64,000 nt of DNA, from the NCBI GenBank assembly GCA_001782805.1, contig MFPT01000008.1, forward strand, positions 13,162 to 77,161, read 5' to 3'. The stretch's first letter is position 1, and every line of letters starts with the position of its first letter. This document shows positions 3,482 to 26,639 of the stretch, one piece after another. The translations under genes and the position numbers were made by a program. Source of the DNA: Candidatus Magasanikbacteria bacterium RIFCSPHIGHO2_01_FULL_41_23 (GTDB lineage Bacteria; Patescibacteriota; Patescibacteriia; Magasanikbacterales; UBA922). The notes below the pieces were generated by a model. The model had not been told where the DNA came from. It saw only the letters and a program-made list of their open reading frames with translations, and made no database searches.

Positions 3482-3517
3482 GACGGTCGTGCAGCGCAAT
3501 AGCGTAGCACGACCGTC
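3482..3517 (+). terminator. putative intrinsic terminator: 11-bp perfect stem GACGGTCGTGC / GCACGACCGTC with a 14-nt loop, then a weak T-rich tract
   Basis: Begins 40 nt after the TAA at 3440-3442. Followed by cctcaacctttcttc. Confidence 0.4.
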
Positions 3518-3586
3518 CCTCAACCTTTCTTCATCAACCTAATTGGTGGAGAGCTATATGAGGCTACCAGTTCTTTAAAAAATTTT

Positions 3587-3653
3587 GCACACAGAAGAGT
3601 GATATTGACAGAACGCCATTTGGCGCAAGTTTAAATAGTAGTCTTCTGTGTGC
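3587..3653. repeat. 12-bp perfect inverted repeat GCACACAGAAGA ... TCTTCTGTGTGC enclosing a promoter-like TTGACA (3605-3610) and TTTAAAT
   Basis: Seen in sequence, ~65 nt upstream of the 3718 gene start. Could be an operator framing the promoter or an RNA hairpin. Confidence 0.4.
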
Positions 3654-3717
3654 GAATCAATCTACATTAACCGTAACCGCAACCGCCCCGTGGTCGGGGC
3701 AAGACTGGAGTTGAAGC

Positions 3718-4362: not shown

Positions 4363-4579
4363 CGCCCCCCCTACACCCCACCTTGTGCCCCCCCGCACCG
4401 TAAGAGATGGCATCGCAAGACGTCATCAATTCGGTCATCGGCACCCCCGCGCGTCGCAAGACCTCGGGATCCCTCTGGGTTAATGAGTTTGACTCGTTAA
4501 TCAAGAAGGATAATGTTCATTAAAACAAAATAAAAAAACAACCTTGTTATTTTCAAAGTTGTTTGATTTATTTATGTAG

Positions 4580-4652
4580 TGGACCGGACGGGAGTTGAAC
4601 CCGCGCCACTCCGTGTCAAGAGGAGCATGCTGACCGTTAACACTACCGACCC
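4580..4652 (-). tRNA. tRNA-like gene, 73 nt, atypical anticodon arm (isotype undetermined; possibly a degenerate tRNA or attachment-site remnant)
   Basis: Minus-strand sequence: GGGTCGG TA GTGT TAACGGTCA GCAT G CTCCT CTTGACA CGGAG TGGC GCGGG TTCAACT CCCGT CCGGTCC A. The acceptor stem has 7 bp (2 G-U pairs), the D stem 4 bp, the T stem 5 bp, and the T-loop is TTCAACT. The anticodon stem is only 4 bp plus a U-C mismatch with loop CUUGACA (anticodon UGA, C at position 37), or 5 bp with a 9-nt loop. There is no encoded CCA. It lies between the two high-GC islands. Confidence 0.5.
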
Positions 4653-4989
4653 ATAATCCACTACACAAATGAGATTATACTACAAAACTCTTCCGGATGG
4701 AAGAGTCGTAGTGACACGGAGTATGAACCGGCATTTGCCAGCTTGTCCTCTATGTAAGTTAGAATAACACGAGGGGAATTGATTGTCAAAATTGTCAATG
4801 TGTATAACTGTCGCCCGCGCTTTGTTTCTAACATTTAGAACCAGAGCACGCGTGATAACGCGATCGACTTGCTTTAAACTTGTTTATTCTGAGCATATCG
4901 AAGAGTCGAAGAGATCTTTACAACATAAGCAAATATTTTAATTAATACAATTCCTGTGAAGCAAAATGCTGACTACAATAGTCATCAGC

Positions 4990-5082
4990 TTGCCTCACAG
5001 GAATAGCACCCCGCTTGGGGAGCGAACCCCGACTCGGGGGTGAAGTTCTGCTTTACTCCGGCTAGTCTGGGGTGAGCTTCCT
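4990..5082 (+). ncRNA. conserved ~95-nt structured element, copy B, immediately 5' of the Cys-rich lipoprotein gene
   Basis: See copy A. Here the shared 3' block ggggtgagcttcct is followed by a GGAAG hairpin, then GGAGG (5114-5118) and ATG 5126. Confidence 0.4.
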
Positions 5083-5125
5083 GGCGGAAGGTATGTTCTG
5101 TTCTGTTTTTTTTCGGAGGTGTCTT

Positions 5126-6817: not shown

Positions 6818-7109
6818 GTTCCCTCCCACCTCACGATCTCGTACGCAAGTACTTGAGATCACCACGCCACCTGTCGTGAAGAAAACAACAGGCAATCCAC
6901 ATTTTTTATTTTTCTATTAAGGAAAGTAGAAAGTGCAGATTCAAATAATCCTCTTTACAATTTAGGTTTTAACTAGGCCAGTGATTATAACAGTAATAAT
7001 TTAGTGTTTTAATCGCTGGCTTAGTTTTGTTTTACCGCATGAGGGATTTCGTAGCTGGCATTCCTTACACCAAAATGCGGTTCAACTGCAAACGAGCAAG
7101 GAGCTCCAA

Positions 7110-9149: not shown

Positions 9150-9304
9150 ACGCGCCCTCCCACCCGCTCTTTCCTTCTCCACCGCCCTCCTGAGGCATGC
9201 GGTGGCACACGATAGTGTGAGCCTCTCCCTTTGCGCAAGCCAAGGGACTCTCATCATTTTCTTCATCTGGAATGGAGAAACGTGACTAGAGTCATGTTTG
9301 ACGT

Positions 9305-9351
9305 CACACCGAAATTATAACTTGACATATTATAATTTCGGTGTGTATACT
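9305..9351 (+). promoter_or_regulatory. perfect 16-bp palindrome CACACCGAAATTATAA-n9-TTATAATTTCGGTGTG overlapping a promoter (TTGACA 9322-9327, 18-nt spacer, TATACT 9346-9351) for the DUF4143 ATPase gene
   Basis: Seen in sequence. The -35 box sits inside the 9-nt spacer of the palindrome, the classic geometry of a repressor operator. The ATG at 9360 gives a very short leader. Confidence 0.4.
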
Positions 9352-9359
9352 TATCCTGT

Positions 9360-10595
9360 ATGGTTATAAAAATACGACAATTATCCCAAAAATTGGTACA
9401 GGCGGCACGATCCTTTCCGGCGGTTGTTATCACTGGTCCGCGCCAATCCGGCAAGACGACACTGGTGCGTAATTTGTTCAAAAAAACGCACAACTATGTT
9501 AACTTGGAAGATCCTGATACGCGCGCCCGTGCCCTCTCTGATCCACGGCTATTTTTTGCATCCTTCAATTCGCCGCGTCTTATCCTTGACGAGATACAGT
9601 ATGTACCGCAACTTTTATCGTATGTTAAATCTGCTATTGATGAACACCGTACTTCCGGGCGTTTCATCATAACTGGATCACAGCAATTTAGCCTGATGCA
9701 AGGAGTGAGTGAATCATTGGCCGGCAGAGCCGCTATCCTGACTTTATTGCCGTTTTCGTATGGTGAAAGGATTGGACAAGGAGAAAAATTATTACCTTTC
9801 ACTAATTGGACAAACCGTCTGGCTCAAAAAAAAATAAATACCAGTCCGCATCCCTCGATTGCTTCGCTGTTGGTGCGAGGATCATATCCAACACCAACTC
9901 GCTCTTCTGTGGATTATTCTTTATGGTACGGTTCGTATTTGGCTACGTACCTTGAACGGGACATTCGTAATCTGTCTCAGGTGGGTGATCTTCAGCAATT
10001 TGAACATTTTTTGCGCTTATTGGCGAGCCGTACCGGACAGATACTGGATTTGGCCGGCTTAGCACGTGATTTAGGAATTTCTCAGCCAACTGCGAAACGC
10101 TGGTTGTCTATTCTTGAAACTGGCTACCAAGTTTTACTCCTCTATCCTTATTTCAAAAATATAGGTAAGCAGGTAGTAAAGCGCCCTAAAGTTTTTATCA
10201 CTGACACTGGTCTCGCTTGTTACTTACTAGGGATAAATGATCCTAAAACTTTAACGAACCATCCACAATTTGGCTCGCTGTTTGAAACCTTTGTAGTGAC
10301 CGACATCTGGAAGAGATCTTTGCACAGCGGTATCAAGCCGCGTTTATATTATTTTAGAAGTCACGATGATTTGGAAGTTGATCTGGTGATTGAAGACGGT
10401 AAGGGGCTGCACTGTGTTGAAATTAAAAGTTCTATGACTGTAAAACCCCAACACGCCTCGAGTTTGGTTCGTTTTATCCGTACGCCAACAATTGCTCGAT
10501 ATATTCAATCGTCATCCTTAATATCTTTATCTACTACCGGCCCGATTTCTGCCGGAATTGTGAATTATCATTGGTCAGATTTCTTCTCTATCTAA
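9360..10595 (+). CDS. AAA+ ATPase, DUF4143 family (COG1373-like)
   Basis: Walker A VITGPRQSGKTT. The domain order and C-terminal DUF4143-like region are typical of this family, which is common in CPR and archaeal genomes. Confidence 0.8.
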   Translation: MVIKIRQLSQKLVQAARSFPAVVITGPRQSGKTTLVRNLFKKTHNYVNLEDPDTRARALSDPRLFFASFNSPRLILDEIQYVPQLLSYVKSAIDEHRTSGRFIITGSQQFSLMQGVSESLAGRAAILTLLPFSYGERIGQGEKLLPFTNWTNRLAQKKINTSPHPSIASLLVRGSYPTPTRSSVDYSLWYGSYLATYLERDIRNLSQVGDLQQFEHFLRLLASRTGQILDLAGLARDLGISQPTAKRWLSILETGYQVLLLYPYFKNIGKQVVKRPKVFITDTGLACYLLGINDPKTLTNHPQFGSLFETFVVTDIWKRSLHSGIKPRLYYFRSHDDLEVDLVIEDGKGLHCVEIKSSMTVKPQHASSLVRFIRTPTIARYIQSSSLISLSTTGPISAGIVNYHWSDFFSI

Positions 10596-10603: not shown

Positions 10604-12124
10604 ATGTTAAATTTTATTTCTTCAACTATTCCTGATTTTTTACTGCCGGGATTTTTTTTATTTTTTATTTTTGCCTTACTGATTTTTTTCTTAATCAGAG
10701 AACGCAAAACCGAATATGTTTTGTACGCGTTAATGATTTGGTTCCCACTGGAAAATTTCGCGCTTAATTTTGTGAGTCCGTATTGGTACGATGTTTTCAA
10801 ATATGTACCGGAAGTAATTTTATATTCTATTTTAATCGGTCTTTTTTTTAAACATTGGTCTCGTAATCGGACTGTTATATTACCACAATCACTCCGTCGT
10901 CCTTTTTTATTTTTTATTATTGTGGCAATTTTGTCATTACTATTTAATTGGTATGATCCGACAATTTGGCTTTTGGGTGTACGACAATTGATTCGTTTTG
11001 TGGCGGTTTTTTTGATTGTGTTATTGGCGTCATATTCTGAATCAGTCCGACGCACATTGTTAAAGTTGATGATTGGGATGGTTATGTTTCAGGCCTTGTT
11101 TGGTTTAGTGCAATTTGCGTTTGGTGGTCGACTAGATGTTTATTTATTTCCCGTTCGGGTAGTAAGTATCGGAAATTTGGCAACGGTTGGTGGTAATGAA
11201 TTATTTTGGACACCGGGCACACGAGTGTTTGCCACTATGGGGCGGTATGATCAGTTGGGAAGTTTTTTAATGCTTGGATTAATTGTGGTTGTTTCTTGGC
11301 TTGTGGTATATAAAAAAATAATCACGACAAATCTGGAAAAAAAAGTATTTCCTCCGCTCGCAATAACCGTGTTAGGATTATTAGTGAGTGTTTTAATTTT
11401 AACAAAATCTCGCGCCAGTTGGACTGCTGTGCTTGTTTCAATCGTATTGACTAGTTATTATTTATTTAAAAACAAAAAAATTATTTATTTAATTTCCACC
11501 GGTGTCGTTGTACTTACTTTATATGTGTTTGGTTTTATTTTAACGCATGATAATATAATGGCTTTAACCGAAAAAGATAATCAAACTGTGGCCGAACGAA
11601 TTATTGAAGCGGGAAGTTGGCGCGCGTGGCAAGAAAGTTATGAAGGCTATGGCCGAATTTTTTTTATGGTGAATACGCCGCGCGTGGTGGTGGCTGATTC
11701 GCCGGTTTTTGGGGTTGGTCCGGGAAATTATGGTGGGGGAGTTGCCGCGGCACTGGGGAATACTAAAGTTTATGATCGGTTACATTTGCCGTTTGGCGTG
11801 CAAAATACCTATGGACAAATTGATAACAGTTGGTTTAGTGTTTGGGGGGAATTTGGTACAATGGGATTGGGAGTGATAATTTGGATTTTTATTATTATGG
11901 GTAGAGATGCCAAAAAAATATATGGCGAAACGTCTCATGCGGACACAAAATTTTTGTCCGCCACGTTGTTTGGCTTGATTATTGCGATTGTGGTGATTGG
12001 TTTTTTTGGGCCTTATTTTGAATTCCGAACACTGATGTTTAATTTTTGGTTGATTGTGGGATTATTTTATACTACTGGCCAGCATGAAACTAGATCGGCT
12101 AATTTTCTTTTTAGAAAAGTTTAA
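10604..12124 (+). CDS. polytopic membrane protein, O-antigen ligase / Wzy_C-like
   Basis: About 12 predicted TM helices. The periplasmic-loop motif LTKSRASWTAVLV resembles the Wzy_C signature. ATG 10604 is taken as the start (track 10571 is TTG and overlaps the upstream gene). Confidence 0.6.
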   Translation: MLNFISSTIPDFLLPGFFLFFIFALLIFFLIRERKTEYVLYALMIWFPLENFALNFVSPYWYDVFKYVPEVILYSILIGLFFKHWSRNRTVILPQSLRRPFLFFIIVAILSLLFNWYDPTIWLLGVRQLIRFVAVFLIVLLASYSESVRRTLLKLMIGMVMFQALFGLVQFAFGGRLDVYLFPVRVVSIGNLATVGGNELFWTPGTRVFATMGRYDQLGSFLMLGLIVVVSWLVVYKKIITTNLEKKVFPPLAITVLGLLVSVLILTKSRASWTAVLVSIVLTSYYLFKNKKIIYLISTGVVVLTLYVFGFILTHDNIMALTEKDNQTVAERIIEAGSWRAWQESYEGYGRIFFMVNTPRVVVADSPVFGVGPGNYGGGVAAALGNTKVYDRLHLPFGVQNTYGQIDNSWFSVWGEFGTMGLGVIIWIFIIMGRDAKKIYGETSHADTKFLSATLFGLIIAIVVIGFFGPYFEFRTLMFNFWLIVGLFYTTGQHETRSANFLFRKV

Positions 12125-12131
12125 TTTTTTT

Positions 12132-13130
12132 ATGTCTTCAATTCCGCTTCCAATTGACTGTGTGATTGGCATCAATTATATTTGTAATTCGCGTTGTGTT
12201 ATGTGCGATATTTGGAAAATAAAATCATTTCCGGAATTGTTGCCCGAAGAATATCTTAAATTACCGGCCAGTTTGTTGGATGTGAATATTTCCGGAGGCG
12301 AAACATTTTTGCGCAAAGATATTCCGGAAGTGATTAGAGCAGTACGAACGGCTTGTCCCCAAGCGCGGGTGGTTATTTCCACCAATGGTTTTATGCCCGC
12401 GTTCATTGAACAACAAATGAAAAAAATTTTGGAAATTGATCCGACCATTGGCGTGGCCATATCGATTGACGGGGTTGGTGCAATGCATGAAACCGTTCGC
12501 CGAATTCCTGATGCGTATAAAAAATCAACGGAAACTCTGGAACGTTTGCAATCGTTGGGCATGAAAAATTTACGATTTGCGTTTACGATTATTCCGGAAA
12601 ACGTAACGCATTTCAGTAAAGTGTATGATGATGCCTGTGAGCGGCGGATTCAATTTACACATTCGTATGCCCAGAGTTCGGATAATTATTTTGGCGGTAT
12701 CCATATTATGAATGATCCGGATTTGCGGGTGTTGCGCCAACAATACGAACATATTATCGGGCGTGAATTGCAATCGTGGAATCTAAAGCGCTGGGCGCGG
12801 GCTTTTTATGCGTATAGTTTGTATCGGTTTATCAATGAAAAAAAACAAGTTTTAAATAATGATCCGGGGACACGGTTTTTCTTTATGGCGTCTGACGGAG
12901 TGGTATATCCATCGGTTGTTCACAATTACGCAATGGGGAATTTGAAAAATTTTAATTCGTGGGGAGAATTGTGGAATAGTGAGGAAGCTGAAACCGCGCG
13001 CGCAAAAGTACGAACTGAAGGCAAACCAGCCTGGATGATTTGTACAGCGCGGACGGCGATTAAAAAACATCCGTGGCAGGTAGCGAGCTGGGTGGTTAAA
13101 AATAAATTTTTTGGTTTGGAATTGGTTTGA
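12132..13130 (+). CDS. radical SAM protein
   Basis: CNSRCVMC = CxxxCxxC cluster near the N-terminus. The internal ATG 12132 is chosen because track start 12054 overlaps the previous gene by 70 nt. Confidence 0.7.
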   Translation: MSSIPLPIDCVIGINYICNSRCVMCDIWKIKSFPELLPEEYLKLPASLLDVNISGGETFLRKDIPEVIRAVRTACPQARVVISTNGFMPAFIEQQMKKILEIDPTIGVAISIDGVGAMHETVRRIPDAYKKSTETLERLQSLGMKNLRFAFTIIPENVTHFSKVYDDACERRIQFTHSYAQSSDNYFGGIHIMNDPDLRVLRQQYEHIIGRELQSWNLKRWARAFYAYSLYRFINEKKQVLNNDPGTRFFFMASDGVVYPSVVHNYAMGNLKNFNSWGELWNSEEAETARAKVRTEGKPAWMICTARTAIKKHPWQVASWVVKNKFFGLELV

Positions 13131-14631: not shown

Positions 14632-14848
14632 AAAAGTACCACTAAAAATTCAAATAGCTTGTCGAGATCGGATTAAACTTTTTTCTTCAGATCAATTTCA
14701 TCCGCAACTTCATAATCATGCCTTATTGGGGAATTTTTTAGGATATCGTAGTATAAATGTTATGGCTGACTGGCGAGCAATCTTTGTCAAAGAAGGCGAA
14801 GACTGTACATTTTTTTATGTTAGGACACATAGTCAGTTGTACCACTGA
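14591..14848 (+). CDS. type II toxin, RelE/YafQ family (mRNA interferase)
   Basis: The C-terminus HALLGNFLGYRSINVMADWRAIFVKEGEDCTFFYVRTHSQLY parallels the YafQ/RelE pattern (H-x-L-x-G-x-x-x-G-Y-R ... I-Y ... R-x-G-x-H-x-x-L-Y). AAGGAGG precedes the ATG. Confidence 0.6.
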   Translation: MEIHYRRSFIKEFEKVPLKIQIACRDRIKLFSSDQFHPQLHNHALLGNFLGYRSINVMADWRAIFVKEGEDCTFFYVRTHSQLYH

Positions 14849-16847
14849 AAATAAAAAAAACGCGCGCTTTTTGGGTTTATTTTTGCTAATTTTTTTGGGT
14901 ATTTGTGCTCCTATTTTTGTATATCAAACAAAAGCTCAAAGCGGGGGAGCGAAATTGGTGAACTATCATTTAGGTCAGCTATATTCTGGAATGACCAATG
15001 ATTTATCTAAGTATGACATATTGGTGCTGTCTCCGGCACAGATTGCGACTCATCAAGGAATAATGGGCGATATAAAAAAGTTGAATCCACAGATAATTAT
15101 TTTAGCATACGTCCCAAGTCAAAGTTATAACACTAATTATTGGCCAAGAGATGTGGTTTTTAGTGCTCTTAACGTGTCTGATGCTTGGTGGTTGCGCGAT
15201 AGTCGTGGCAAAATTATATCAGCGTGGCCCGGTATAAAAAATATAAATTTGGATCAAACATGGAGTGAATATTTTCTTCCATTTGTGCGGGATCATATTA
15301 GCGTCCTCTCCGGAGTGGATGGGATTTTTTTTGATATGGTTTCGCCTAATATTTCGTGGTTGAATAATGGTGACATTGATTTGAATGGCGATGGTGTGCG
15401 TGATATTTCCAGTCAAGCCGATGCACTGTGGCTTAATCGCACTGAATATTTTTTTAAGCGAGCCAAAGAAATAATGCCTACGATGTATATTGTTGATAAT
15501 GGAACTTCCGCTGCTGTGGTTCAGCCTTATGTTCATGGTCGGATGTATGAAAATTTTCCTACGCCTTGGGAAGGCGATGGTTCGTGGGGTACGGTAATGA
15601 ATCGAGTGCATGAAACACAAAAAAATAATCGTGTTCCTCATATTTCAATTATAAATTCCAATACTGCTAATACTGGCGTACAAAATTACCGTGATGTTCG
15701 GTTCGGTTTGGGGAGTGCGCTATTGGAGAACGGTTATTTTTCCTATGATTATGGTGACCAAAATCATGGTCAAACATGGTGGTATGATGAATATAATGTT
15801 CGACTTGGCCAGCCAATTGGTGGTTCAGTATCGCGGGCGAATTATGCAACGTATCAACCGGATCTGTGGCATCGGGATTTTGATCATGGTTTGGTGTTGG
15901 TAAACAGTACGCCGCAATTGGTGGCTGTGGATTTGGGCGGGGATTATGAAAAAATTAATGGCAGACAAGATCCGACGGTTAATGATGGCTCAATTGTGTC
16001 TGAAGTTGAGATTGCTCCCAACGATGGATTGGTTTTGTTGAAAACCACTTCGCGGCTTGATGATGTGATTTTTTCCAACGGTTCTTTTGCGCGGTTTTAC
16101 AAGCCTGATGGCATCCGTGTGCGGAATGGTTTTTTTGTTTTCGATGAGGAATATAAAGGTGGCGCGCAGATTTTATATTTTGATTTTGATGGCAATGCAA
16201 AACATGATACTTTGGTTGCGAGCGGGAATAAAATTACGGCCACGCGCGACGATGGTCAGCCGTTTTTCAAAATTTATCCGTACACGGCGAATTATTCCGG
16301 CAATTTAGTCTTGGCGGTTGGTGATCTTGATAACGATGGTTTTGATGAACTGTATGTTGCGCCGGATAAAGGGTCGTATCCGATTAAAATTTACAATTTG
16401 TTTGGCGAAGAAATTTTGCCTGAAGGCTGGTATCCGTTTGGTAAAAAATATCAGGATGGTTATTCTTTGGCAATTGCGGGCAAAGGATATGATGGTCGGT
16501 TAGTGATTGGAGCGAATCATGCTACGGGTCAGAATGATCATGATTCAACCGTCGGACTATATGATGCCGGATTAAAAAAAACCGCGGAATGGTCGATTTT
16601 TAAACAATCAAATCATGAACTAATGGTTGGAGCAGGGGATTTGGATGGTGATGGTATGCCGGAGATTGTCGCCGGATTTGGTAGTGGACGAAAGCCGACT
16701 CTTAAATTATATACACTTGAAGGAAAAGAATTTGGTCAGCCGATTATTTTTGCCGGTGAAATTTTTCGGAACGCGCAGATTCAAATTACTGATGTTAATT
16801 TTGATGGCGCGGCCGATATTGTGCTTCTGACAAGTGGGGCTTTATAA
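14812..16847 (+). CDS. secreted FG-GAP/VCBS-repeat (beta-propeller-like) protein with an N-terminal ~400-aa domain of unknown function
   Basis: Signal/TM FLGLFLLIFLGICAPIFVYQTKAQS. Repeats GDLDNDGFDELYVAPD, GDLDGDGMPEIVAGF and VNFDGAADIVLL. Start is uncertain (ATG 14812, or TTG ~14871). Confidence 0.6.
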
Positions 16848-16858
16848 ATTATAAAAAT

Positions 16859-17989
16859 TTATGCTTTGTACATTTCAATAATCCGCGGCATAATTGCGTC
16901 CCACCGATACTGTTTTTCAATAATCAATACATTTTCTTCGCCAAGTTTTTTTTGTTCATCAGATGATAATGATAAAAATGTGTTTAATTTGGTTTTAAGA
17001 TCAGACGAATCATTTTGATTAAAAATAATTTTTGGATTATTGATTAATTCCAAATGTTCCGGAATGTTTGACAGCAATACCGGTTTAGCCCAGTTCATGG
17101 CTTCAAGCACTGTAATGGGCAGGCCTTCATTGAGTGAAGGATGCACCAAGACTTTGGCATGGGCAAACAATGTTTCCAATGCTTGGCCACTTTGAAAATC
17201 AGTAAACACAATGTCATTGCATAAATTGGCCTTCTGATGAAGATTTTTTATATACTCATTGGTATACGCCGATCCGCCGACAATTACCAATTTTAAGTTG
17301 GTGATTGCCGGATTATTTATGTTTTGTTTGAGAGCGCTAAACGCATCAATTAAAATATGCGCTCCTTTGTGCGGTACGAGACGCGCGACCATAAGGATAT
17401 ATTGACTACTGACTAATCCAAATTTTTTCAATAATTCTTCCGAATTAATTGTTTCAACTTGGTTTACTGCATTCGGAATGTACGTTGTTTCTCGATCAAA
17501 TTCATTCAGGCAATATAATTGTAAACTGCGCGACACCGTGATTGTTTTGTGCGCAAATAAAACCGTTGCCTTTTCACCGATCCGTAAAAATAATTTTGCG
17601 ATCAGCCCCCATTTTTGGTGATAGCGGTCAATGGAGTGAAATGTTGTTATCACTTTTGTTCGTGGCGAAAAAAGACGAGGGATCCAAGACACAAGTGCCG
17701 GACCAACTCCATGATAATGGATTACGTCATATTTTTGACTCAGGGCATGTAGTGAAGACAAGAGGGTGTGCGTAAACGTATCAAGATGTTTTGTTTTAAT
17801 TGATGCGAGATGTTTGATTATTACGCCGTCAATATTTATTGTTCCTTGGTTTTTGGTGTACCAAGATCGGCCATAGACAGTTACGTCATGGTTCAATTTT
17901 GCCAAATGCACTGCCAGGTCGTGGACATGGCGTTCCACTCCACCAAAGCTGGCCGGCATTCCTTTTTGTCCGATCATGGCGATACGCAT
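16859..17989 (-). CDS. glycosyltransferase family 4
   Basis: MRIAMIGQKGMPASFGGVERHV at the N-terminus and LVHPSLNEGLPITVLEAMNWAKPVLLSNIPE at the C-terminus, typical of GT4. Confidence 0.8.
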   Translation of the reverse strand: MRIAMIGQKGMPASFGGVERHVHDLAVHLAKLNHDVTVYGRSWYTKNQGTINIDGVIIKHLASIKTKHLDTFTHTLLSSLHALSQKYDVIHYHGVGPALVSWIPRLFSPRTKVITTFHSIDRYHQKWGLIAKLFLRIGEKATVLFAHKTITVSRSLQLYCLNEFDRETTYIPNAVNQVETINSEELLKKFGLVSSQYILMVARLVPHKGAHILIDAFSALKQNINNPAITNLKLVIVGGSAYTNEYIKNLHQKANLCNDIVFTDFQSGQALETLFAHAKVLVHPSLNEGLPITVLEAMNWAKPVLLSNIPEHLELINNPKIIFNQNDSSDLKTKLNTFLSLSSDEQKKLGEENVLIIEKQYRWDAIMPRIIEMYKA

Positions 17990-18142
17990 ATTGTTTAACT
18001 AACAAATAACAGAGTATGATAGCCCAGTTTTGGTTTTTTGTCAATGGAACGGAGGCTAAAAAATCCTAACCAATAGCCCGGCCTCGCCCTCCCGTATAGG
18101 TATGTTGCGTACCTTTCGAGACGAGCCATTGGTTAGGGTCTT

Positions 18143-19204
18143 TTAGACCCCGGAATATTCTTGAACCAAGCCAACAAATTGGTGAAACAGACGCCGGTTT
18201 TGTTTTGAGATTGGCAGGTCATGAACCAAGTCATGACAGAGACCGGTATGATCCTGAACCATATCAAGAATTTTTTCGCGAATTTTATATTTCCCGCATA
18301 GTTCACGAACATAATTGGCCTGTGACAAAGGAATTTGATCCAACCAAAATGTATAGTTGAATTTTTCTTTTTCTGAGCGATTTAACTCAGGCAAAAGCAG
18401 TGCGCACCACAGCGTTGGTTGTTTATTGTTAAGATCCTCAATGAGGTTTTTACTGTTACCATTTTCATTGAAGCCGGCCAGATCATCAAGCGCTTGGAAA
18501 GCAATACCAAGAGATTCACCTATGGCTTTCAGAAATAAGCGGGTGGTTTCATCTGGCGTATGACTTAGTATAAATCCGGATACCAGCGGTAAGACAAAAC
18601 TATATGCTCCGGTTTTACTTTCGTATAAATGCAAGACGTCGTCTATGTTATGTGTTGGTTCATGAGCCACGGCATCATATACTTGCGCGCGTGTAGTACG
18701 AGTGAGTATGTTCAGAAAAAGAGTTAGTAATTCCACTTTGGTTTCATTGGCGCATTCCAAACTAATCAGTTGATTCAGTACAAATTGGATTAAATAATCT
18801 CCGACCGCGATAGCAGTGCCAACCCCATGTCGTTCATATGCCAACACGCCTCGTCCTTCAAAAATTGCTTTTAGACGAGCGGGAAAACTTAAGGTATCGC
18901 GTCTGATGGGGCTTTCATCAATAATGTCATCATGAATTAAGAGCGCATAATGCAAGACCTCGATTAATCCGGCGACTTGTTCTACGATTTTTGTTTCTTT
19001 TGCGCCAAAACTCTCTGCTGACAACAGACAAAGACCGCCTCTCCAGGCTTTGCCGATTTGTGAGGCGAGCTGTAATTCTTTAAAAATATAATGGTCGTTC
19101 GAAAAATCTTCGCGTGCTTGATTTTCTACATCATCAATAACAGTTCTTACTTGTGCGGCAATATTTTGTCGCCATGTTGCCAGATTGCGCTCTATGTCTT
19201 TCAT
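18143..19204 (-). CDS. trans-polyprenyl diphosphate synthase (trans-IPPS_HH; GGPPS/IspA/ComQ-like)
   Basis: GKAWRGG substrate motif, FARM LIHDDIIDESPIRRD, SARM GIAFQALDDLAGF. Last gene of the peptide-kinase-cyclase operon, 3 nt from the upstream gene. Confidence 0.85.
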   Translation of the reverse strand: MKDIERNLATWRQNIAAQVRTVIDDVENQAREDFSNDHYIFKELQLASQIGKAWRGGLCLLSAESFGAKETKIVEQVAGLIEVLHYALLIHDDIIDESPIRRDTLSFPARLKAIFEGRGVLAYERHGVGTAIAVGDYLIQFVLNQLISLECANETKVELLTLFLNILTRTTRAQVYDAVAHEPTHNIDDVLHLYESKTGAYSFVLPLVSGFILSHTPDETTRLFLKAIGESLGIAFQALDDLAGFNENGNSKNLIEDLNNKQPTLWCALLLPELNRSEKEKFNYTFWLDQIPLSQANYVRELCGKYKIREKILDMVQDHTGLCHDLVHDLPISKQNRRLFHQFVGLVQEYSGV

Positions 19205-19206
19205 AA

Positions 19207-21099
19207 CTAATTATAATGTTTGATTAAAGCTTGCATGGTTTGATGTTCGCGCATTACTGTGTGCAGAGCATCTCCCAATCGGTTAATGGTTTTAGAAAGC
19301 ATAATTGGTGCGGAAGCACGCCATGATATTTTTTTCATTATGTATAGCGCTTGTTCGATTTCTTGTTGTGCCTGACGAATGGCAATTACAATCCCTTCTT
19401 CCCAAAATATTTCTTTTGCCGCTCCACTATTATTGAGCGCGGGGAAAGCATAACATGACAGAAATAATGGCTTGGTCACGCCGGTCAGACGATTGGCCGC
19501 ATAATCTTCATTCCAATCATGTAAATCATCGCACATCTGGCGCGCGTTCAGATAATGGGTAAATAGTTTTTTTAACTGCTGTTGCGTTTCTTTTGTTTGG
19601 CGAGAAATAATTGAAATTAATTGTGGTCCCAGAGTGTGACCAAACGAGCGTTCGCATAAATTAAGAGTCGTGGATCCGAGCAATTCTTTGGCATACGCAG
19701 AATCCGCAAAAAAATGAGTTCGTTCTTTCAATTCATGGGCATGAGCCAAATCAATATGATCAAGAGTGTCAGTTACCAATTCGGTTGGTATGCGATATTC
19801 GGTTGCGACTGCATGGTATCCCAGTGTTGCTTCGCGCAAACAAATATTGGCCAATGATAAATTTTGGGAAATAGTTCCCTCGTCATAGCATCCATCGTAC
19901 AATTGATATGAGAGCCAGCCCCACAAATTGGCTGTTCCCAGTTCGATGTATAATTGCAAAGGGAGTTCAGCTTCAAACGCGCGAGCAATATCAAAACTGA
20001 TTAGGGTAATTTCGCGTGCCAGTGGTGTACCGACTAATGTACTGAATTCTTGCAGGCCTACGGTGAATAAATTATGATCAAGCTTGTTTAATTTTCCGGC
20101 CACTGTGGTAATTATTACATCATGGAGCTGATTTTCCACTGATGAAATGATTGGTGATTTACTGCATCTTCCTACTTCATAATCATCATAATAGTTTATC
20201 GCGAGCGCGCAAACCGTGGCTGTTAATGCTACGCATCCGGATATTTCCGTGGTTGCATTCTCTTGTTTTTCCAGAATGCACGGATCAGCGGCATATGCTT
20301 GTCCGGCTCCAATTATTTTTTTAGCGTATTCAGTAATTATTATGGAGTCACTGCCGATTTTTATCATGAGTATTAATGTTAATCCCAATTCCAGAAGTGA
20401 TAATCCATCAATTTTTTGTGAATAACCATTTACTATTTTTTTAATCTCCGTGTCACACTGGCCATTTAATCCTCGATCCAATAAAAATAACATTAGTGGT
20501 TCAGAGACATAATATGGTGATCGCCAATTATTAGTGGCTATTCTATCAATAATATAATTATTCAAATTGTTTAAAACAACGTCTTGTTGTTTTAACGCGT
20601 AAGCAATTCCGGCATTAACCACCGGATCAATGTCAGACCATTTTTCCTCGTTTTTAGTCATTATCCATGTTTTGTATGGTCCGCCCGGTTTTTCTTCGTT
20701 ATTTGTGAGAGATTGGATGTACTGTATTAATGTTTGTATTTCCAGATTTTTGGTTACTGATTGAACCACAATCGCCAGACTGCTGTCATCAAGATCAGCC
20801 GGATACGGAAATTGCGTATTGTGCGTATCTGTTTGTGCCCAATATGACCATAGTTCGTTGTCAGATTTTTCTGATTGCAAAAAATAATTTATTTTTTTTA
20901 TTATATCGTGCGTTTCTTTTCTTTTGAGCATAGCCAGTATGCTGCCAATTAAGGCGGGATAGAAAATAGTACTATGGTTCACCGGAGATTTGTCCAATGA
21001 ATTACGCGTTATACTGGTAAAACCGCCATCATTGTTTTGATTGTGGGTAACAAAAATAATTGCGGAGCGCACATACTCGGCGCTATCAAAAATAGGCAT
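19207..21099 (-). CDS. terpene-cyclase-like protein: class-II motifs (QW-like QNNDGGF; DxDD as FPYPADLDDSSLAIV) plus a C-terminal DDxxD (MCDDLHDWNEDY)
   Basis: Motifs read directly from the translation. Sits between the HK and the polyprenyl synthase with 7-nt and 3-nt gaps (operon). Function inferred from motifs only. Confidence 0.5.
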   Translation of the reverse strand: MPIFDSAEYVRSAIIFVTHNQNNDGGFTSITRNSLDKSPVNHSTIFYPALIGSILAMLKRKETHDIIKKINYFLQSEKSDNELWSYWAQTDTHNTQFPYPADLDDSSLAIVVQSVTKNLEIQTLIQYIQSLTNNEEKPGGPYKTWIMTKNEEKWSDIDPVVNAGIAYALKQQDVVLNNLNNYIIDRIATNNWRSPYYVSEPLMLFLLDRGLNGQCDTEIKKIVNGYSQKIDGLSLLELGLTLILMIKIGSDSIIITEYAKKIIGAGQAYAADPCILEKQENATTEISGCVALTATVCALAINYYDDYEVGRCSKSPIISSVENQLHDVIITTVAGKLNKLDHNLFTVGLQEFSTLVGTPLAREITLISFDIARAFEAELPLQLYIELGTANLWGWLSYQLYDGCYDEGTISQNLSLANICLREATLGYHAVATEYRIPTELVTDTLDHIDLAHAHELKERTHFFADSAYAKELLGSTTLNLCERSFGHTLGPQLISIISRQTKETQQQLKKLFTHYLNARQMCDDLHDWNEDYAANRLTGVTKPLFLSCYAFPALNNSGAAKEIFWEEGIVIAIRQAQQEIEQALYIMKKISWRASAPIMLSKTINRLGDALHTVMREHQTMQALIKHYN

Positions 21100-21105
21100 A
21101 GAAAT

Positions 21106-22608
21106 TTAATTTTTTGACCACGAGATGATAAAAGAAGTACCTTTCGTCGGTTCGCTCTCGACTGAAATATCCGCACTTAATTCCTGACGCAATAATTCTT
21201 GAGCGATATTTAAACCAAGTCCTATCCCTCGTTCAGATTTGGTGCTAAAAAACGGATCAAAAATAAATGGTAAAAGTTTTGAATCAATTCCGCATCCCGT
21301 ATCCTTAATAATCAATTGACATTTTTGTTTATCTCGAGCGATTTGTCCTGAGTGGCTTGTGGTGAGCGACTTGTGGTGAGCACAGTCGAACCAAGTCGAA
21401 CCGAGTCGAGGGAAATCGATGGATTCAATCGTGAATGAAATAAATACGGTTCGTTCGCGATCGATTGGATTTTCCGCACAGGATTCAATGGCATTGGTTA
21501 AGATATTCACCCAAGCTCGGTACAGACGCAGTGGATTGGCAGTTACTTTACACGATGCGAAATCAGGGCACTCAATTTTTGTACTGACCTGATTTGCATT
21601 ATATTGTACTGCGTGAATGGCTTGTTTGACTGTTTCTCCAATTTCAATTACCCGTGATTCATTTCTATTTGATAATTCGCGTCTTATTCTATCAATCAGT
21701 TCTGACAACTGATTGGTCGCCGATAAAGCGACATTAATTTGTTCGCGTATTTCTCCTGCGTTAATGGAATTATTTTTACTTAATTGATCAATATGCATGG
21801 TTACGGCCGTGAGCGGATTAATTAAATCATGCATCAGTCCGGCTGATAATTTGCCGATTTCAGTTAGTCGCGATGTTTCTTTTAATCGCTCCAGCTGTGT
21901 ATGCTCCAATTCTTTGGTACGGGCAAGAACGCGCTCTTCCAGTGTGTCTCTTTCTTTTTTAACCAATACTTCGGAACGTCGCGCGCGACGAAGACTATTT
22001 TCAATCTCTTGATACGCGAGCCAAGTAATTCCGGAAATTACCAATAATATAATCGTAATTTCCATACTGTAATTGGCATACAATGTATTGTGCATCCAGC
22101 TTTCATCCACCGATATAAGGTTGTGCTGGTGTGCATAATCAAGGAGGCCAAGATAACTACCCAATGCAATCGCCATTATAATCGCTGATCGCGTATTTAA
22201 TAGAATACCAATCAAAACAATAATCAGACTAAGAGTCAAAAGCGGTATTGGTAATAGCGTACCCCAGCGGGTGAGTGAATATAGGGTTGGTATAATCAAC
22301 AGACCCAAAAATGCGTATGAGGAAAATTTCCACCAGCCTTTTCTGGCTAGGTATAACAGACCAAGAAAAAGGCCGGAAATTATGACTGATATCCAAATAG
22401 GAATTCCTCGCGGCGACGTTCCCGGTATGGTTGCTAAAGAAGCCACTGAAACAGTGAACAAAATTGAAAGAGCTGACAAAAAGATGAGCAAGACGCATAA
22501 AATATATTCGCGCCGCGCATCATCCTCTCGTCGTGAGGTTGGCTGAGTTATTTTTTGCCAAAATGTCCTCAGCCGGAAAAGAATGGAAAAGAAAAAATCT
22601 TTTGACAC
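21106..22608 (-). CDS. sensor histidine kinase (HisKA + HATPase_c), N-terminal polytopic membrane domain
   Basis: H-box LSAGLMHDLINPLTAV, N-box NILTNAIESC, G-boxes IIKDTGCGID and GIGLGLNIAQELL. About 6 TM helices over the first 200 aa. GTG start 2 nt after the stop of the small peptide ORF. Confidence 0.85.
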   Translation of the reverse strand: MSKDFFFSILFRLRTFWQKITQPTSRREDDARREYILCVLLIFLSALSILFTVSVASLATIPGTSPRGIPIWISVIISGLFLGLLYLARKGWWKFSSYAFLGLLIIPTLYSLTRWGTLLPIPLLTLSLIIVLIGILLNTRSAIIMAIALGSYLGLLDYAHQHNLISVDESWMHNTLYANYSMEITIILLVISGITWLAYQEIENSLRRARRSEVLVKKERDTLEERVLARTKELEHTQLERLKETSRLTEIGKLSAGLMHDLINPLTAVTMHIDQLSKNNSINAGEIREQINVALSATNQLSELIDRIRRELSNRNESRVIEIGETVKQAIHAVQYNANQVSTKIECPDFASCKVTANPLRLYRAWVNILTNAIESCAENPIDRERTVFISFTIESIDFPRLGSTWFDCAHHKSLTTSHSGQIARDKQKCQLIIKDTGCGIDSKLLPFIFDPFFSTKSERGIGLGLNIAQELLRQELSADISVESEPTKGTSFIISWSKN

Positions 22609-22610
22609 AT

Positions 22611-22721
22611 CTAGCCTGACCAGGGGGGTGTATTAACCGCTGTCTTTTGGGCAAGACTGGCTAACATTTTCTTTTGACGACCTTCGGTGCTTTCAAGAAT
22701 TGCGCTAATGAGGTTTGACAT
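22611..22721 (-). CDS. small peptide, 36 aa, MSNLISAILESTEGRQKKMLASLAQKTAVNTPPWSG; candidate precursor/signal peptide with Trp at position -3
   Basis: Canonical SD AAGGAGA 3-4 nt before the ATG (SD is rare elsewhere in this window). Its stop lies 2 nt before the HK start codon. C-terminal ...PPWSG resembles ComX pheromone tails (...QWGD). Confidence 0.4.
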   Translation of the reverse strand: MSNLISAILESTEGRQKKMLASLAQKTAVNTPPWSG

Positions 22722-22750
22722 ATGTCTCCTTATATTAGTAAATAAATAGG

Positions 22751-22781
22751 GTGCAAGCGATGTCGACCTAGTGCAATCGCT
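22751..22781 (-). promoter_or_regulatory. direct repeat GTGCAAGCGAT / GTGCAATCGCT (20-nt phasing) upstream of the peptide-HK operon; candidate OmpR-type regulator binding site, with TTGCAC / TATAAG promoter-like hexamers
   Basis: Seen in sequence in the 310-nt gap between the RR and the operon. OmpR-family regulators bind tandem direct repeats. Confidence 0.25.
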
Positions 22782-22917
22782 GTGATTTTCCCTATAGAAC
22801 ATTAATTGTTTGTTCCTATATATATCATAGCGGTTTTGAGCTTAAATTTTCTTCAATTATTTCTTAAATTCTTTTTTCATAAAAAAGTTACAACACAGCC
22901 TAGTTTTTACCATAGTC

Positions 22918-23592
22918 TTAAATTTTTACGCTCAAACGATAACCGCGACCTTGAACCGTGTGGATAAGTTTGTGCCGATTGCCAATGTCCAATTGTTTAC
23001 GCAACTCGCAAATATGCGCTTCAAGCGTGTTTGACCACACATCAGCATTCATATCCCACACATGCTCCATAATTTGCGCGCGGGTTATTATTTCATCGGG
23101 TCGACGGATGAGATATTCCAAAAGCATATATTGTTTGCGTGACAAATCAACAAAATATTTTCCGCGATGAACAACTTGCTTGGCTGTATCCAATACCACA
23201 TCATCGATTTTGTAAATGGTGTTATTCGGTAGGCTTGGTCGACGAGTCAAGGCTCTTAAGCGCGCCAGTAATTCTGCGGTGGAAAATGGTTTGGTCAAAT
23301 AATCATCAGCGCCAAGATTCAAGAGACTGACTTTTTTGTCCACTTCATGATTAATTGATAAAACCAAAATGGGAACATACTTGCCTCGGCCGCGAATATG
23401 AGAGCAGACTTGTTCGCCATTTTTCTTGGGCAAATTATAATCCAGAATGATAAGATCATAATCATTCACACAGGCTAATGACGTCGCGGTTTCACCGTCA
23501 CCGGCGGTATCAACAGCGTATGATTCATACTTTAACGCTGTTTTAAGACTGCTGAGGAGAATGGGATCATCATCAACAATAAGAATTCGCAT
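22918..23592 (-). CDS. response regulator, OmpR/PhoB family (REC + winged-helix)
   Basis: MRILIVDDDPILL...DLIILDYNLP receiver domain, C-terminal trans_reg_C-like region (...HTVQGRGYRLSV). The internal ATG at 23592 is taken as the start; the track extends to 23628. Confidence 0.85.
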   Translation of the reverse strand: MRILIVDDDPILLSSLKTALKYESYAVDTAGDGETATSLACVNDYDLIILDYNLPKKNGEQVCSHIRGRGKYVPILVLSINHEVDKKVSLLNLGADDYLTKPFSTAELLARLRALTRRPSLPNNTIYKIDDVVLDTAKQVVHRGKYFVDLSRKQYMLLEYLIRRPDEIITRAQIMEHVWDMNADVWSNTLEAHICELRKQLDIGNRHKLIHTVQGRGYRLSVKI

Positions 23593-23696
23593 AGATTGTA
23601 ATTGTACCGCACTTATGGCACTGGGCACAAAAATTTTATGCGCAATGGGGAAGACGGACGATTCGGAAAAAATCGTCCGTGCCGATTGAGGTGGGT

Positions 23697-24680
23697 TTAG
23701 CCGTTGTTTCCATCCGGGTCGCAGGTGTCCCCGAAACCCAAACCATCAGCGTCGTTATCAATTTGCGTCGGATTGAATTTCCAGGCGCAATTGTCAACAG
23801 CGTCAGGAATGCCGTCGTTGTCGTCGTCTATGTCGATATTGTTTGGAACTCCGTCGTTGTCCAAATCCGTGTCACATCCGCCGAAGATTCCATCTTGGTC
23901 ATTGTCTCCCTTATTGTACACACATTCGGATTTCGAGGGATTGCACACTCCTATGTAACAGGGGATCGACTCAGGAATGACGCAAACGTACGGACTTCCG
24001 GCGCATTTACCAGACGTACAGACATCGTTTTCTGTACACCAATTACCATCGTCACATAAAGCGACGTTGGCCACAAACGAGCAACCAATCTTTGGATCAC
24101 AGGCATCGTTAGTGCAGGAGTTTTTGTCATCGCAGTCAAGATCCACACACTTGGGAAGTTCTATTACTTCAGGTGCACTAATCGAACCATGGTCTGATAT
24201 TTGATTAGTGTCATCTGAAATATCGTTTGACCACGTTTTAATGTCATTGTCGTAGGTATCCACAATTTCATTTTCAGACGTGGTCGTGGTATCAACATTA
24301 AGGACATCATTAATCACATCGCTCGTGTCCGAGACATTAATGTCCATCGACGTTTCAAAATTTTCCGAAACATCGGCATCGTTGTAGGATCCATCTGCAG
24401 TATCATTCGGCCTGAACACTTCGTCCGTCATCGTAACGATGTCTTTCTGATCCGTATCCTGCTGCGTCACGTCTTGATACGTCGTCTCGGTTTGAGACAT
24501 CACGTCGGGCAACACGCTGGACACATCGTCCGTAACATCGCTCTGGAACACGAAAGTCGCCTGCGCTTCTTTGCCTACATCAGCAGACATTTTTCGTTGG
24601 AAAGAGATTTCATCGATATTTCTGTCAAACACGCATCCGGCTAGAAAAAAAATAACGAACAAGACAATAAAACTTCTCAT
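23697..24680 (-). CDS. cysteine-rich repeat lipoprotein with thrombospondin-type-3-like Ca-binding repeats (native low-GC paralog of the high-GC cassettes)
   Basis: Lipobox MRSFIVLFVIFFLAGC. Repeat units CDDKNSCTNDACDPKIGCSFVANVALCDDGNWCTENDVCTSGKC. TSP3-like DTDLDNDGVPNNIDIDDDNDGIPDAVDNC and DNDADGLGFGDTCDPD. Ordinary AT-rich codons. Confidence 0.7.
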   Translation of the reverse strand: MRSFIVLFVIFFLAGCVFDRNIDEISFQRKMSADVGKEAQATFVFQSDVTDDVSSVLPDVMSQTETTYQDVTQQDTDQKDIVTMTDEVFRPNDTADGSYNDADVSENFETSMDINVSDTSDVINDVLNVDTTTTSENEIVDTYDNDIKTWSNDISDDTNQISDHGSISAPEVIELPKCVDLDCDDKNSCTNDACDPKIGCSFVANVALCDDGNWCTENDVCTSGKCAGSPYVCVIPESIPCYIGVCNPSKSECVYNKGDNDQDGIFGGCDTDLDNDGVPNNIDIDDDNDGIPDAVDNCAWKFNPTQIDNDADGLGFGDTCDPDGNNG

Positions 24681-24785
24681 TGGATTTTTTCCACCTATTC
24701 AAAAGGCTATGGTCTAAAGAACAATATTTTAACCATAACACAAACAACCTTAAGGAAGTCTTAAATTTTCAAAGTTATCAACAGG

Positions 24786-26639
24786 TTATTGTACAAGCAC
24801 ACCTTTTTTTCGGGCGATTGCATCATCGGGTAAACTAGTATCAATATTAGAACCAAAACCAATAACTGTTTTATTAATAAATGTATCCCATCCTGAAATA
24901 TGTACATTAGCAAGAAGAGGTAAAATTGTACCGCGTTCGCTTGGTGTTGGCATAATTGCCAATTCAAAATTTACTTGCGCACTTTCGTGCGCCGAAAGAT
25001 GGGAAATTTCCCAGGAAACAGTGCGATTTTCCGGAGAATAGATTGGTTCTCGTCCTTGATTCACGCTTGTTTTTCCTGTCCAATTAACTCCTGACGGCAA
25101 AGTCGCTGTTAGTTTGAGTCCGGAAACAGCACTCGTTCCATTTTGGATTTCCAAAAGTGCCCAATATTTTGTTTCTTTTCCAACCACTGGAGGCAAATGT
25201 CCGCGGCCAATTTGATCACCTTCCGCAGAATAATAATGCGCGCTCGCATTGATGTTTAGACTTGTACCAATTGCCAAAGGATTTAATTGTGCGTTTGTTT
25301 CAAACAATTGAGTAATTCCAACTACTTCAGCAGTAATTTTTGGATTAAGGACAAGATTAAGATTCGTCGCTCCACTTGGATGTAAGGAAATGGGAATTAT
25401 TATGGGGATTTGTATTGCTGTGCCGCGAGCGAGAAAATTAAGTTCGGGGAATTTTTTTTGCGATATGATTAAATTTGATCCTTGGCTGGAAAAATTGTTT
25501 TTTTGTCGAGCCGCAGCTATTGATACGAGAGCTGAAGGCAGAGGAATACTCAAATTAAGATTTTTTAAATCAACGCTCCCAGTATTTTTTAGCCGGATTA
25601 TTATTTGGGCTATGTCTCCGGGACTGGCTGTATTGACTGACCATTGGCCGGAGATTTCAATATTCGGATGGGCCACTGCACTTTTGGCCGCAATTTTATT
25701 TTGATTGAATATAGTACCGTTAATTATAATTGATGGCGTCAACTCAAGAGAAATCGTGTCAATATTTTTTGGTACGGAAGCCGTAATCGTCAGAGTAGTA
25801 GTCGCACTTTCATTGGCATTCAGATGGGGAATATACCATTTTTCTCGATCGATTTTCCCCGCTGTAGTTGAGTCTATTTTGTAACTCGTATATTTATTGG
25901 ATTCGACGGGAATAACAATATTTTCCAAATCATGATGATTGTTATTTTTTATTACCAGTTCACTTTTCCAACTACTGTTTTCAAAAATAGTCGCGGGTGC
26001 GGATAATGATCCAATCAAAGTGGAATCTCGAAGTGTGGCGATTACTCCTGTAGTCACAACTTCAAAAATGTTACGATTTTTTTGCCGGTAGACCAATTCA
26101 ATTCCCGTAGGATAATTATGATTTGGTTCACCGAAAAATTGACCGGCAAATATAATTTCACCTTCAGTTTTTGGCTCAATGTTTGGCACGCTAATTGAGT
26201 GAGTGTTGGTAACAAAATTTTTGCCGTTTACATTAAATAGAATAAAACCAACAGGGAAATTAATGTGCATTATTGGGTCAACCAATACTACCTCGCTATT
26301 ATTTTTATAGGTGACGGAAAAAAATAAATGCTCGCCACTCTGGACTCGATTTAATTCACTTTGCTCATGTCCATTGATTTTTATTGAAATTGCGACATTT
26401 TTTTGAACAGTTGGATCATACCAGTGCCAAAAGAGGCCGATACCACCAATAATAAAAATACTGGCCAAAAGTAGCATGTCAAACAAAAAAAGTTTGCGAG
26501 CATGGGCAAACCGCAGATGATATTTTTTTTGATAATGAACTTCCAGCGCATGAATCGGGGAAATCAAGAAAGCCAGAAACCATTTGTGCGGAGCATGAAG
26601 AAGGTGATGTTTGGTAAGATGATTGGAGACATACCTCAT
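24786..26639 (-). CDS. hypothetical membrane-anchored extracellular protein (N-terminal TM, large beta-rich ectodomain)
   Basis: TM LLLASIFIIGGIGLFWHWY, then ~540 aa with many N-x-S/T sites and no recognised catalytic motif. Confidence 0.55.
   Translation of the reverse strand: MRYVSNHLTKHHLLHAPHKWFLAFLISPIHALEVHYQKKYHLRFAHARKLFLFDMLLLASIFIIGGIGLFWHWYDPTVQKNVAISIKINGHEQSELNRVQSGEHLFFSVTYKNNSEVVLVDPIMHINFPVGFILFNVNGKNFVTNTHSISVPNIEPKTEGEIIFAGQFFGEPNHNYPTGIELVYRQKNRNIFEVVTTGVIATLRDSTLIGSLSAPATIFENSSWKSELVIKNNNHHDLENIVIPVESNKYTSYKIDSTTAGKIDREKWYIPHLNANESATTTLTITASVPKNIDTISLELTPSIIINGTIFNQNKIAAKSAVAHPNIEISGQWSVNTASPGDIAQIIIRLKNTGSVDLKNLNLSIPLPSALVSIAAARQKNNFSSQGSNLIISQKKFPELNFLARGTAIQIPIIIPISLHPSGATNLNLVLNPKITAEVVGITQLFETNAQLNPLAIGTSLNINASAHYYSAEGDQIGRGHLPPVVGKETKYWALLEIQNGTSAVSGLKLTATLPSGVNWTGKTSVNQGREPIYSPENRTVSWEISHLSAHESAQVNFELAIMPTPSERGTILPLLANVHISGWDTFINKTVIGFGSNIDTSLPDDAIARKKGVLVQ

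Follow-up and report, generated by a model that had tools for sequence, protein, structure and literature searches.

A candidate ComX-like autoinduction module in Candidatus Magasanikbacteria, with a peptide signal predicted to carry a cyclised prenyl group

A 36-codon gene in Candidatus Magasanikbacteria, set between the genes for a response regulator and a sensor histidine kinase, probably (we would put it at about 0.6) encodes the precursor of a signal peptide that is lipid-modified on tryptophan by a neighbouring fused enzyme and sensed by the neighbouring kinase. Going by the genes and motifs of the locus, the best reading is a ComX-like autoinduction module whose signal would carry a cyclised prenyl group. 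Comparative evidence supports the core idea strongly: the peptide always travels with the regulator-kinase pair -- two eroded loci, discussed below, aside -- and with an enzyme of a kind known to prenylate the Trp of ribosomal peptides. All positions refer to the window, that is, the whole stretch of 64,000 nucleotides that was analysed. The minus-strand gene order there is response regulator, peptide, kinase, 630-aa enzyme, polyprenyl-synthase-family protein and GT4 glycosyltransferase, with the following coding features:

22918..23628, minus strand: OmpR/PhoB-type response regulator, with a receiver domain and a winged-helix Trans_reg_C domain
22725-22731, minus strand: Shine-Dalgarno sequence AAGGAGA, 3 nt upstream of the peptide ATG
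22611..22721, minus strand: precursor peptide gene, 36 aa and a stop, running from ATG to TAG; product MSNLISAILESTEGRQKKMLASLAQKTAVNTPPWSG
22677-22721, minus strand: peptide leader, approximately residues 1-15, amphipathic, with L4, I5, I8 and L9
21106..22608, minus strand: sensor histidine kinase of 500 aa, with N-terminal membrane helices followed by HisKA and HATPase_c
19207-21099, minus strand: gene for the 630-aa enzyme, with no Pfam/NCBIfam match
20161..21099, minus strand: N-terminal domain of the enzyme, aa 1-313, class II terpene cyclase, alpha/alpha barrel
20785-20796, minus strand: DxDD motif of that domain, D102-L-D-D105
19210..20154, minus strand: C-terminal domain of the enzyme, aa 316-630, with a trans-isoprenyl-diphosphate-synthase-like alpha fold
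19882-19899, minus strand: first Asp-rich motif of the C-terminal domain, Y401-D-G-C-Y-D406
19504-19539, minus strand: second Asp-rich motif of the C-terminal domain, Q521-x-x-D-D-L-H-D-x-x-x-D532
18143..19204, minus strand: polyprenyl diphosphate synthase-like protein of 353 aa, with the first Asp-rich motif (FARM) HDDIIDE, an RR pair, GKxxR and KT

The peptide gene and its conservation

The initial annotation had placed a short coding sequence at 22611-22721, and its translation is matched exactly on the minus strand, where the gene is present in a single copy in the window. The AAGGAGA Shine-Dalgarno sequence it named is indeed found, and homologous loci have purine-rich sequences of the same kind at the equivalent place before the peptide ATG. 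The close junction with the kinase, read there as translational coupling, is also as described: the kinase GTG at 22608, the first start codon of its frame, follows the peptide TAG after 2 nt (AT), and the corresponding distance is 1-20 nt in eight of the nine junctions examined among homologous loci, with 57 nt in the remaining one (L058). The peptide frame is open upstream as far as an ATG at 22802, but the 63-aa form that would begin there is unlikely because the homologues all begin at the equivalent of 22721, behind the Shine-Dalgarno sequence. The peptide ends in NTPPWSG, so that Trp34 of 36 (codon at 22620-22622, minus strand), preceded by Pro, is the third residue from the C-terminus.

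Loci with relatives of the 630-aa protein were gathered from identical-protein assemblies, GTDB genomes and JGI metagenomes, and the homologous peptides were located by scanning those loci with a small HMM. An ORF of 34-42 aa, in the same orientation, lies between response regulator and kinase in all 35 distinct loci that include the region; a check of conservation had been proposed for the short ORF, and every one of these keeps the frame, with neither frameshift nor loss. Met1, Leu9 and Arg15 are invariant and in fixed register throughout; aliphatic residues occupy positions 4, 5 and 8 in 32 to 35 of the peptides, Thr is found at position 10 in 27, and 31 have Asp or Asn at position 11. A precursor with a target Trp is thus found in the same cluster in 35/35 loci; 32 of the peptides have exactly one Trp, and the distance from the last Trp to the C-terminus is 1-8 residues, most commonly 2, with Pro before that Trp in 29. 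Taken together, the conserved leader and the variable middle and tail are as expected of a precursor made up of leader and core.

Within the window's own subfamily, the peptide gene shows pN of 0.07-0.41 against pS of 0.19-0.98. The lowest values belong to the closest pair, L002/L003 (pS 0.19, pN 0.07); for all other pairs pN is 0.16-0.41 and pS 0.56-0.98, the synonymous sites being saturated. Seven codon columns -- L9, R15, L23, A24, N30, T31 and P32 -- have undergone synonymous change only. Judged by its sequence, then, the 36-codon ORF is a real conserved gene under purifying selection, since all 35 loci keep it and its replacements are restrained while the synonymous sites are saturated. 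Neither the peptide nor the 630-aa protein finds any match in Pfam/NCBIfam, even at E = 10; the peptides are present in public gene calls, unnamed or as 'hypothetical protein'.

The enzymes and the layout of the module

The AlphaFold model of the 630-aa enzyme, built on eight homologues, has a pLDDT of 81.5 and consists of two all-helical domains. Among the structures closest to it are those of MstE and a prenylcyclase, enzymes that act on prenyl groups already joined to an aromatic ring and cyclise them. The initial annotation had spoken of a kinase-cyclase-synthase operon; the cyclase and a prenyltransferase-like domain form one fused protein, and the predicted product is therefore probably cyclised rather than a plain prenyl-Trp. 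The C-terminal domain is proposed as the Trp prenyltransferase. Its second motif reads DDLHDWNED (DDxxDxxxD), in which DDxxD is complete and which is only NSE/DTE-like.

The adjacent 353-aa protein resembles a genuine synthase in its other motifs, but its second motif is DDLAG, and DDxxG stands in place of DDxxD in 11 of its 15 aligned homologues; in L007 and L011 this partner is degenerate. Because DDxxG resembles the pseudo-SARM, or degenerate second Asp-rich motif, of the indole prenyltransferase Ord1 (DDxxA), the partner may be something other than a plain synthase that supplies the donor. It is proposed to supply the prenyl donor; the possibility that it is itself the Trp prenyltransferase, as the likeness to Ord1 might suggest, is judged less likely because about half of the loci lack it and its IPP-binding motifs are retained. 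With the pseudo-SARM-like motif in the 353-aa protein and not in the C-terminal domain of the enzyme, the division of labour could nevertheless be reversed.

An exhaustive profile search with the 630-aa protein gave 1715 cluster representatives at E <= 1e-3 and 830 at <= 1e-30. The rarity implied by a word-index search (8 relatives) and a profile variant (7) was an artefact. Each of the best 150 relatives is a full-length protein with both domains, about 560-770 aa long and in most cases 620-670, and the enzymes at the peptide-bearing loci are 23-69% identical to that of the window. The 90% cluster of the 630-aa protein includes GenBank OGH64432.1, annotated 'hypothetical protein [Candidatus Magasanikbacteria bacterium]'. 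The titles of the other genome records with the module name Magasanikbacteria, Saccharibacteria and, doubtfully, 'uncultured Gammaproteobacteria'; the last label is carried by the MAGs of L010, L012 and L013, and looks unreliable because L010 shares with the window both the gene order and 36-44% identity in response regulator, histidine kinase, enzyme and synthase.

Among the homologous loci the order regulator-peptide-kinase-enzyme is kept almost everywhere, with the synthase-like gene next in about half and the Trp peptide never missing. Three loci from distant branches have unrelated flanking genes, so the four genes behave as a unit. The regulator (receiver and winged helix) and the kinase (HisKA, PF00512, and HATPase_c) have all the domains of an OmpR/PhoB-type two-component pair, and the membrane part of the kinase, aa 35-200 (22009-22506), contains four clear and two weaker helices joined by short loops. 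No protease or exporter was found in the module, and no signal sequence on the peptide.

Two loci are naturally eroded. In L006 the peptide and the enzyme are retained, the kinase is cut to 237 aa without its catalytic half, and the synthase is gone; L011 (Candidatus Magasanikbacteria MAG DALYDF01) is without a kinase, has QLNN in place of DLDD in the cyclase, and encodes a synthase-like protein without the first Asp-rich motif. The peptide gene is intact in both, so its association is not with the kinase alone. A different variant is seen in L060, where the homologue of the cyclase/prenyltransferase (2565-4877; P0047, 770 aa) has a C-terminal response-regulator receiver domain, which suggests that there the kinase controls the enzyme directly by phosphorylation.

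In a Magasanikbacteria-like subfamily (window 14757-26639, L002, L003, L006 and L007) the module sits in a conserved neighbourhood, with sigma-70/HTH_17, DUF11 (CLIPPER) and Dicty_CTDC surface proteins upstream and GT4 glycosyltransferases, a GHL15/FG-GAP protein and Wzy_C downstream; these are cell-envelope genes, which the regulator might control. About 5 kb past the end of the module, beyond the genes for the polyprenyl-synthase-like protein, a GT4 glycosyltransferase and a GHL15 protein, the window encodes a radical SAM protein (12054-13130, plus strand) with a weak SPASM match (E 9e-4, below the Pfam cut-off), adjoining a Wzy_C O-antigen-ligase-like gene. SPASM enzymes often mature peptides; no link between this gene and the peptide studied here was seen. 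Farther along, positions 2001-10000 have 56-60% G+C, against about 40% elsewhere in the window, and encode Cys-rich Dicty_CTDC-repeat proteins (5072-6817 and 7110-9149) as well as, on the minus strand, a tRNA-Ser(TGA) at 4579-4652. The high G+C of this block may be due to the repeat proteins, the alternatives being foreign origin or an assembly join.

Regulatory DNA upstream of the peptide gene

The space between the regulator stop (22918) and the peptide ATG measures 196 nt, and not the 310 nt that had been given for it. Its main elements are:

22824..22870, minus strand: candidate promoter, consisting of three boxes phased at about 11 bp and then a -10-like TATGAT (22824-22829)
22863-22870, 22851-22858 and 22841-22848, minus strand: the phased boxes, AATTTAAG, AATTGAAG and AATTTAAG, respectively
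22756..22781, minus strand: leader hairpin, with arms AGCGAT (22776-22781) and ATCGCT (22756-22761) and a 14-nt loop

Of the boxes in the window, the first and third pass the motif test and the middle one is weaker and does not; a phased CTTAA/TTTAAG triple stands at the same position before TATnAT in L002, L003, L004, L006, L007, L011, L019 and L035 (shuffle p <= 0.017 each). Since phased direct repeats of this kind, with a spacing of about 11 bp, are what OmpR/PhoB-type regulators bind, the TTTAAG boxes at 22841-22870 appear to be a better candidate site for the OmpR-type regulator than the GTGCAA direct repeat to which an autoregulatory role had been tentatively assigned. That repeat exists, as GTGCAAGCGATGT at 22751-22763 and GTGCAATCGCTGT at 22771-22783, 20 nt apart, but it is a repeat in the window only, and the other loci have a hairpin in its place. 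A consensus sigma-70 and terminator scan of 22550-23000 gave nothing useful, and a reading of GGTCGA and TTTATT as -35 and -10 elements was rejected because their spacing ranges from 9 to 23 nt.

The hairpin of the window overlaps the GTGCAA repeat (22751-22783). Its loop ends in GGTCGA (22763-22768), and the U-rich TATTTATTTA (22739-22748) comes after it. The same combination recurs in 13 long-leader loci (L002-L007, L012, L013, L015, L026, L035, L039 and L047, with L010 left out as a duplicate of L003): a GTCGA, mostly as GGTCGA and in L047 as GTCGG, lies beside a helix whose stem sequence differs from locus to locus, and a U-rich or UUUAUU tract follows. The GTCGA is found at the 3' end of a loop or bulge, the loop being mostly 13-17 nt, and 10 to 46 nt in L026, L015 and L013. 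Summed over the loci, the length of stem beside GTCGA is 85, against 63.5 +/- 5.1 in shuffled sequences, none of 2000 of which reached that value, and RNAalifold finds 7 pairs with compensatory changes among four close but distinct relatives. Rfam has no match to the hairpin; an attenuator or a protein-binding element is possible. Many of the distant loci have 20-40 nt from the end of the regulator gene to the peptide ATG, and a separate leader is absent from them.

Proposed mechanism, alternatives and known systems

The pathway that we propose begins with leader residues 1-15 -- the amphipathic helix with Leu9 and Arg15 -- which would act as the recognition element that docks the peptide, as substrate, on the enzyme, with Trp34 behind its Pro as the site to be modified. 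The trans-IDS-like C-terminal domain would ionise a prenyl diphosphate and alkylate Trp34, using a donor that is probably C15-C20 and that would come, where it is present, from the adjacent polyprenyl synthase-like protein; the N-terminal class II cyclase, through its DxDD acid, would then protonate and cyclise the attached chain. The lipophilic product, its leader removed or not, would leave the cell as a signal and be sensed in the membrane, as the ligand of the polytopic kinase. Phosphorylation of the OmpR-type regulator by the kinase, and binding of the regulator to the phased TTTAAG boxes, would close a positive feedback on the peptide gene or operon.

Several observations sit less easily with this pathway. 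Co-occurrence of the peptide is nearly as strict with the kinase as it is with the enzyme, only L006 and L011 separating the two associations, and L011 looks decayed; the module has neither protease nor exporter. One could accordingly picture the peptide as a partner of the kinase that stays inside the cell or in the membrane, modified or not, and reports, for example, on prenyl-diphosphate supply or the state of the envelope. Its want of a signal sequence would agree with this, as would the short distance from peptide stop to kinase start in eight of nine junctions, which fixes the stoichiometry of the two products, and small proteins that modulate sensor kinases are well known. We consider such a role unlikely, though it stands up best among the alternatives: the peptide persists in the kinase-less L011 and in L006, where the kinase lacks its catalytic half, and a conserved leader followed by a variable middle and tail is what a leader-plus-core precursor would show. 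ComQXPA, too, is without a dedicated exporter or protease, and yet ComX is secreted (PMC5331326).

A second alternative concerns the chemistry. An enzyme with DxDD in a class II domain and DDxxD in an alpha domain on one chain, encoded beside a prenyl diphosphate synthase, has the standard layout of a bifunctional diterpene synthase cluster, and DDxxDxxxD resembles the metal-binding motif of class I enzymes; the second Asp-rich motif of the C-terminal domain is complete, against the pseudo-SARM of ComQ, Ord1 and PalQ. The layout and the complete motif both tell against the proposed pathway. The alternative is an ordinary terpenoid route in which the class II domain cyclises a prenyl diphosphate and the class I-like domain finishes a free polycyclic terpenoid, such as a membrane lipid, with the trio of peptide, kinase and regulator merely regulating the route and the peptide being no substrate. 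This, too, is improbable, and we rank it just behind the resident partner, for it is the synthase that is absent from about half of the loci and the Trp peptide that never is, no reason is left for a 36-aa peptide to have a single, Pro-preceded Trp close to its C-terminus, and the module encodes no other peptide-modifying enzyme. The structural relatives MstE and the prenylcyclase, moreover, act on prenyl groups attached to aromatics, and the logic of the fusion is documented for peptide Trp. That the ORF has no functional product, being a chance frame or an upstream leader ORF that sets kinase translation, might be supposed from its shortness, its lack of a Pfam/NCBIfam match and its place directly before the kinase start, but is very improbable given 35/35 loci, invariant residues in register across 23-69% enzyme identity and restrained replacements, and a pure coupling ORF needs no conserved amino-acid sequence.

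If the precursor reading is accepted, a wider claim can be entertained, to which we would give tentative and distinctly smaller weight: that the module is a self-contained peptide-pheromone (quorum-sensing-like) circuit native to CPR/Patescibacteria, whose signal, a short peptide with a polycyclic terpenoid on Trp, represents a chemistry not so far known in cell-cell communication. CPR bacteria are tiny, uncultured and thought to be host-dependent, and to our knowledge almost nothing is known of their means of sensing one another or their partners; a search of a limited literature collection found no account of this module in them. Were the claim true, a compact and widely distributed module -- its enzyme family comprises more than 800 clusters at 50% identity -- would give these bacteria ComX-like signalling, the pheromone might serve between episymbionts or towards hosts, and the terpene-cyclised ribosomal peptides of 2024 would be extended from antibiotics-style natural products to signalling. 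The system is small, with four or five genes and a 36-aa substrate, and the enzyme family is a source of catalysts for late-stage peptide lipidation and cyclisation at tryptophan.

The closest known enzymes are the fused prenyltransferase-cyclase maturases NctPC and ChrPC (Hubrich et al. 2024, as described in the review PMC13290415). In ChrPC, according to that review, a trans-IDS-like domain attaches prenyl groups from C10-C20 donors to an internal Trp, and an MstE-like domain then cyclises the chain (PMC13290415). Compared by description only, the present enzyme is like ChrPC in having an MstE-like class II cyclase, complete with DxDD, and a trans-IDS-like domain, here the candidate prenyltransferase, on one polypeptide, and the locus is like those of both maturases in encoding a ribosomal peptide with a target Trp in the same cluster. 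On the same footing it may differ from them in domain order, its cyclase being N-terminal and followed by a C-terminal trans-IDS-like domain where the 'PC' of their names suggests the opposite, and it is unlike them in its precursor of 34-42 aa with a short leader of its own, its attached kinase-regulator pair and its CPR host. The precursors in the 2024 paper are reportedly of the proteusin, Nif11 and lasso types. MstE and related monodomain class II cyclases, unlike the enzyme here, have small-molecule substrates and no fused IDS-like domain; drimenol synthase also acts on a small molecule, and is fused to a HAD phosphatase rather than to an IDS-like domain.

The pair found here is of the HisKA/OmpR type, unlike ComP/ComA, which belong to the HisKA_3/NarL class. 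In other respects ComQXPA of Bacillus, the classical Trp-prenyl pheromone module, in which the modified Trp is the third or fourth residue from the C-terminus (PMC5331326), offers a functional parallel: both combine an isoprenoid-fold enzyme, a short precursor, a polytopic histidine kinase and a response regulator, without a dedicated exporter or protease, and Trp34 of 36 falls within the second-to-fourth positions from the C-terminus that mark ComX-type peptides encoded beside enzyme, kinase and regulator. ComQ is a one-domain protein that combines a FARM with a pseudo-SARM (NDxxx) (preprint 10.64898/2026.08.29.745113) and has no cyclase, whereas the enzyme here is a two-domain fusion with a complete DDxxD; the gene order is Q-X-P-A there and regulator-X-kinase-enzyme here, and ComX precursors have 53-58 aa as against 34-42. 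The ComX-type precursor of the initial annotation thus survives as a C-terminal modified-Trp peptide, with frame, length, leader and Trp all conserved, but not as a member of the ComX family: by analogy the system works like ComQXPA without belonging to that family, since the enzyme architecture and the classes of kinase and regulator differ.

A third parallel is PalPXQ of Paenibacillus alvei, in which a kinase, a precursor and a Trp prenyltransferase are encoded in one cluster and the enzyme had earlier carried a terpene synthase annotation (PMC10853753). Here, too, the gene for a kinase is clustered with those for a precursor whose C-terminal end has a conserved Trp and for an enzyme of isoprenoid-synthase fold, though PalX carries a large NHLP leader and requires its Trp in the final position, and the three-gene cluster as described has no cyclase domain and no regulator. 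To judge from these likenesses, the present system works like a hybrid of NctPC/ChrPC, ComQXPA and PalPXQ.
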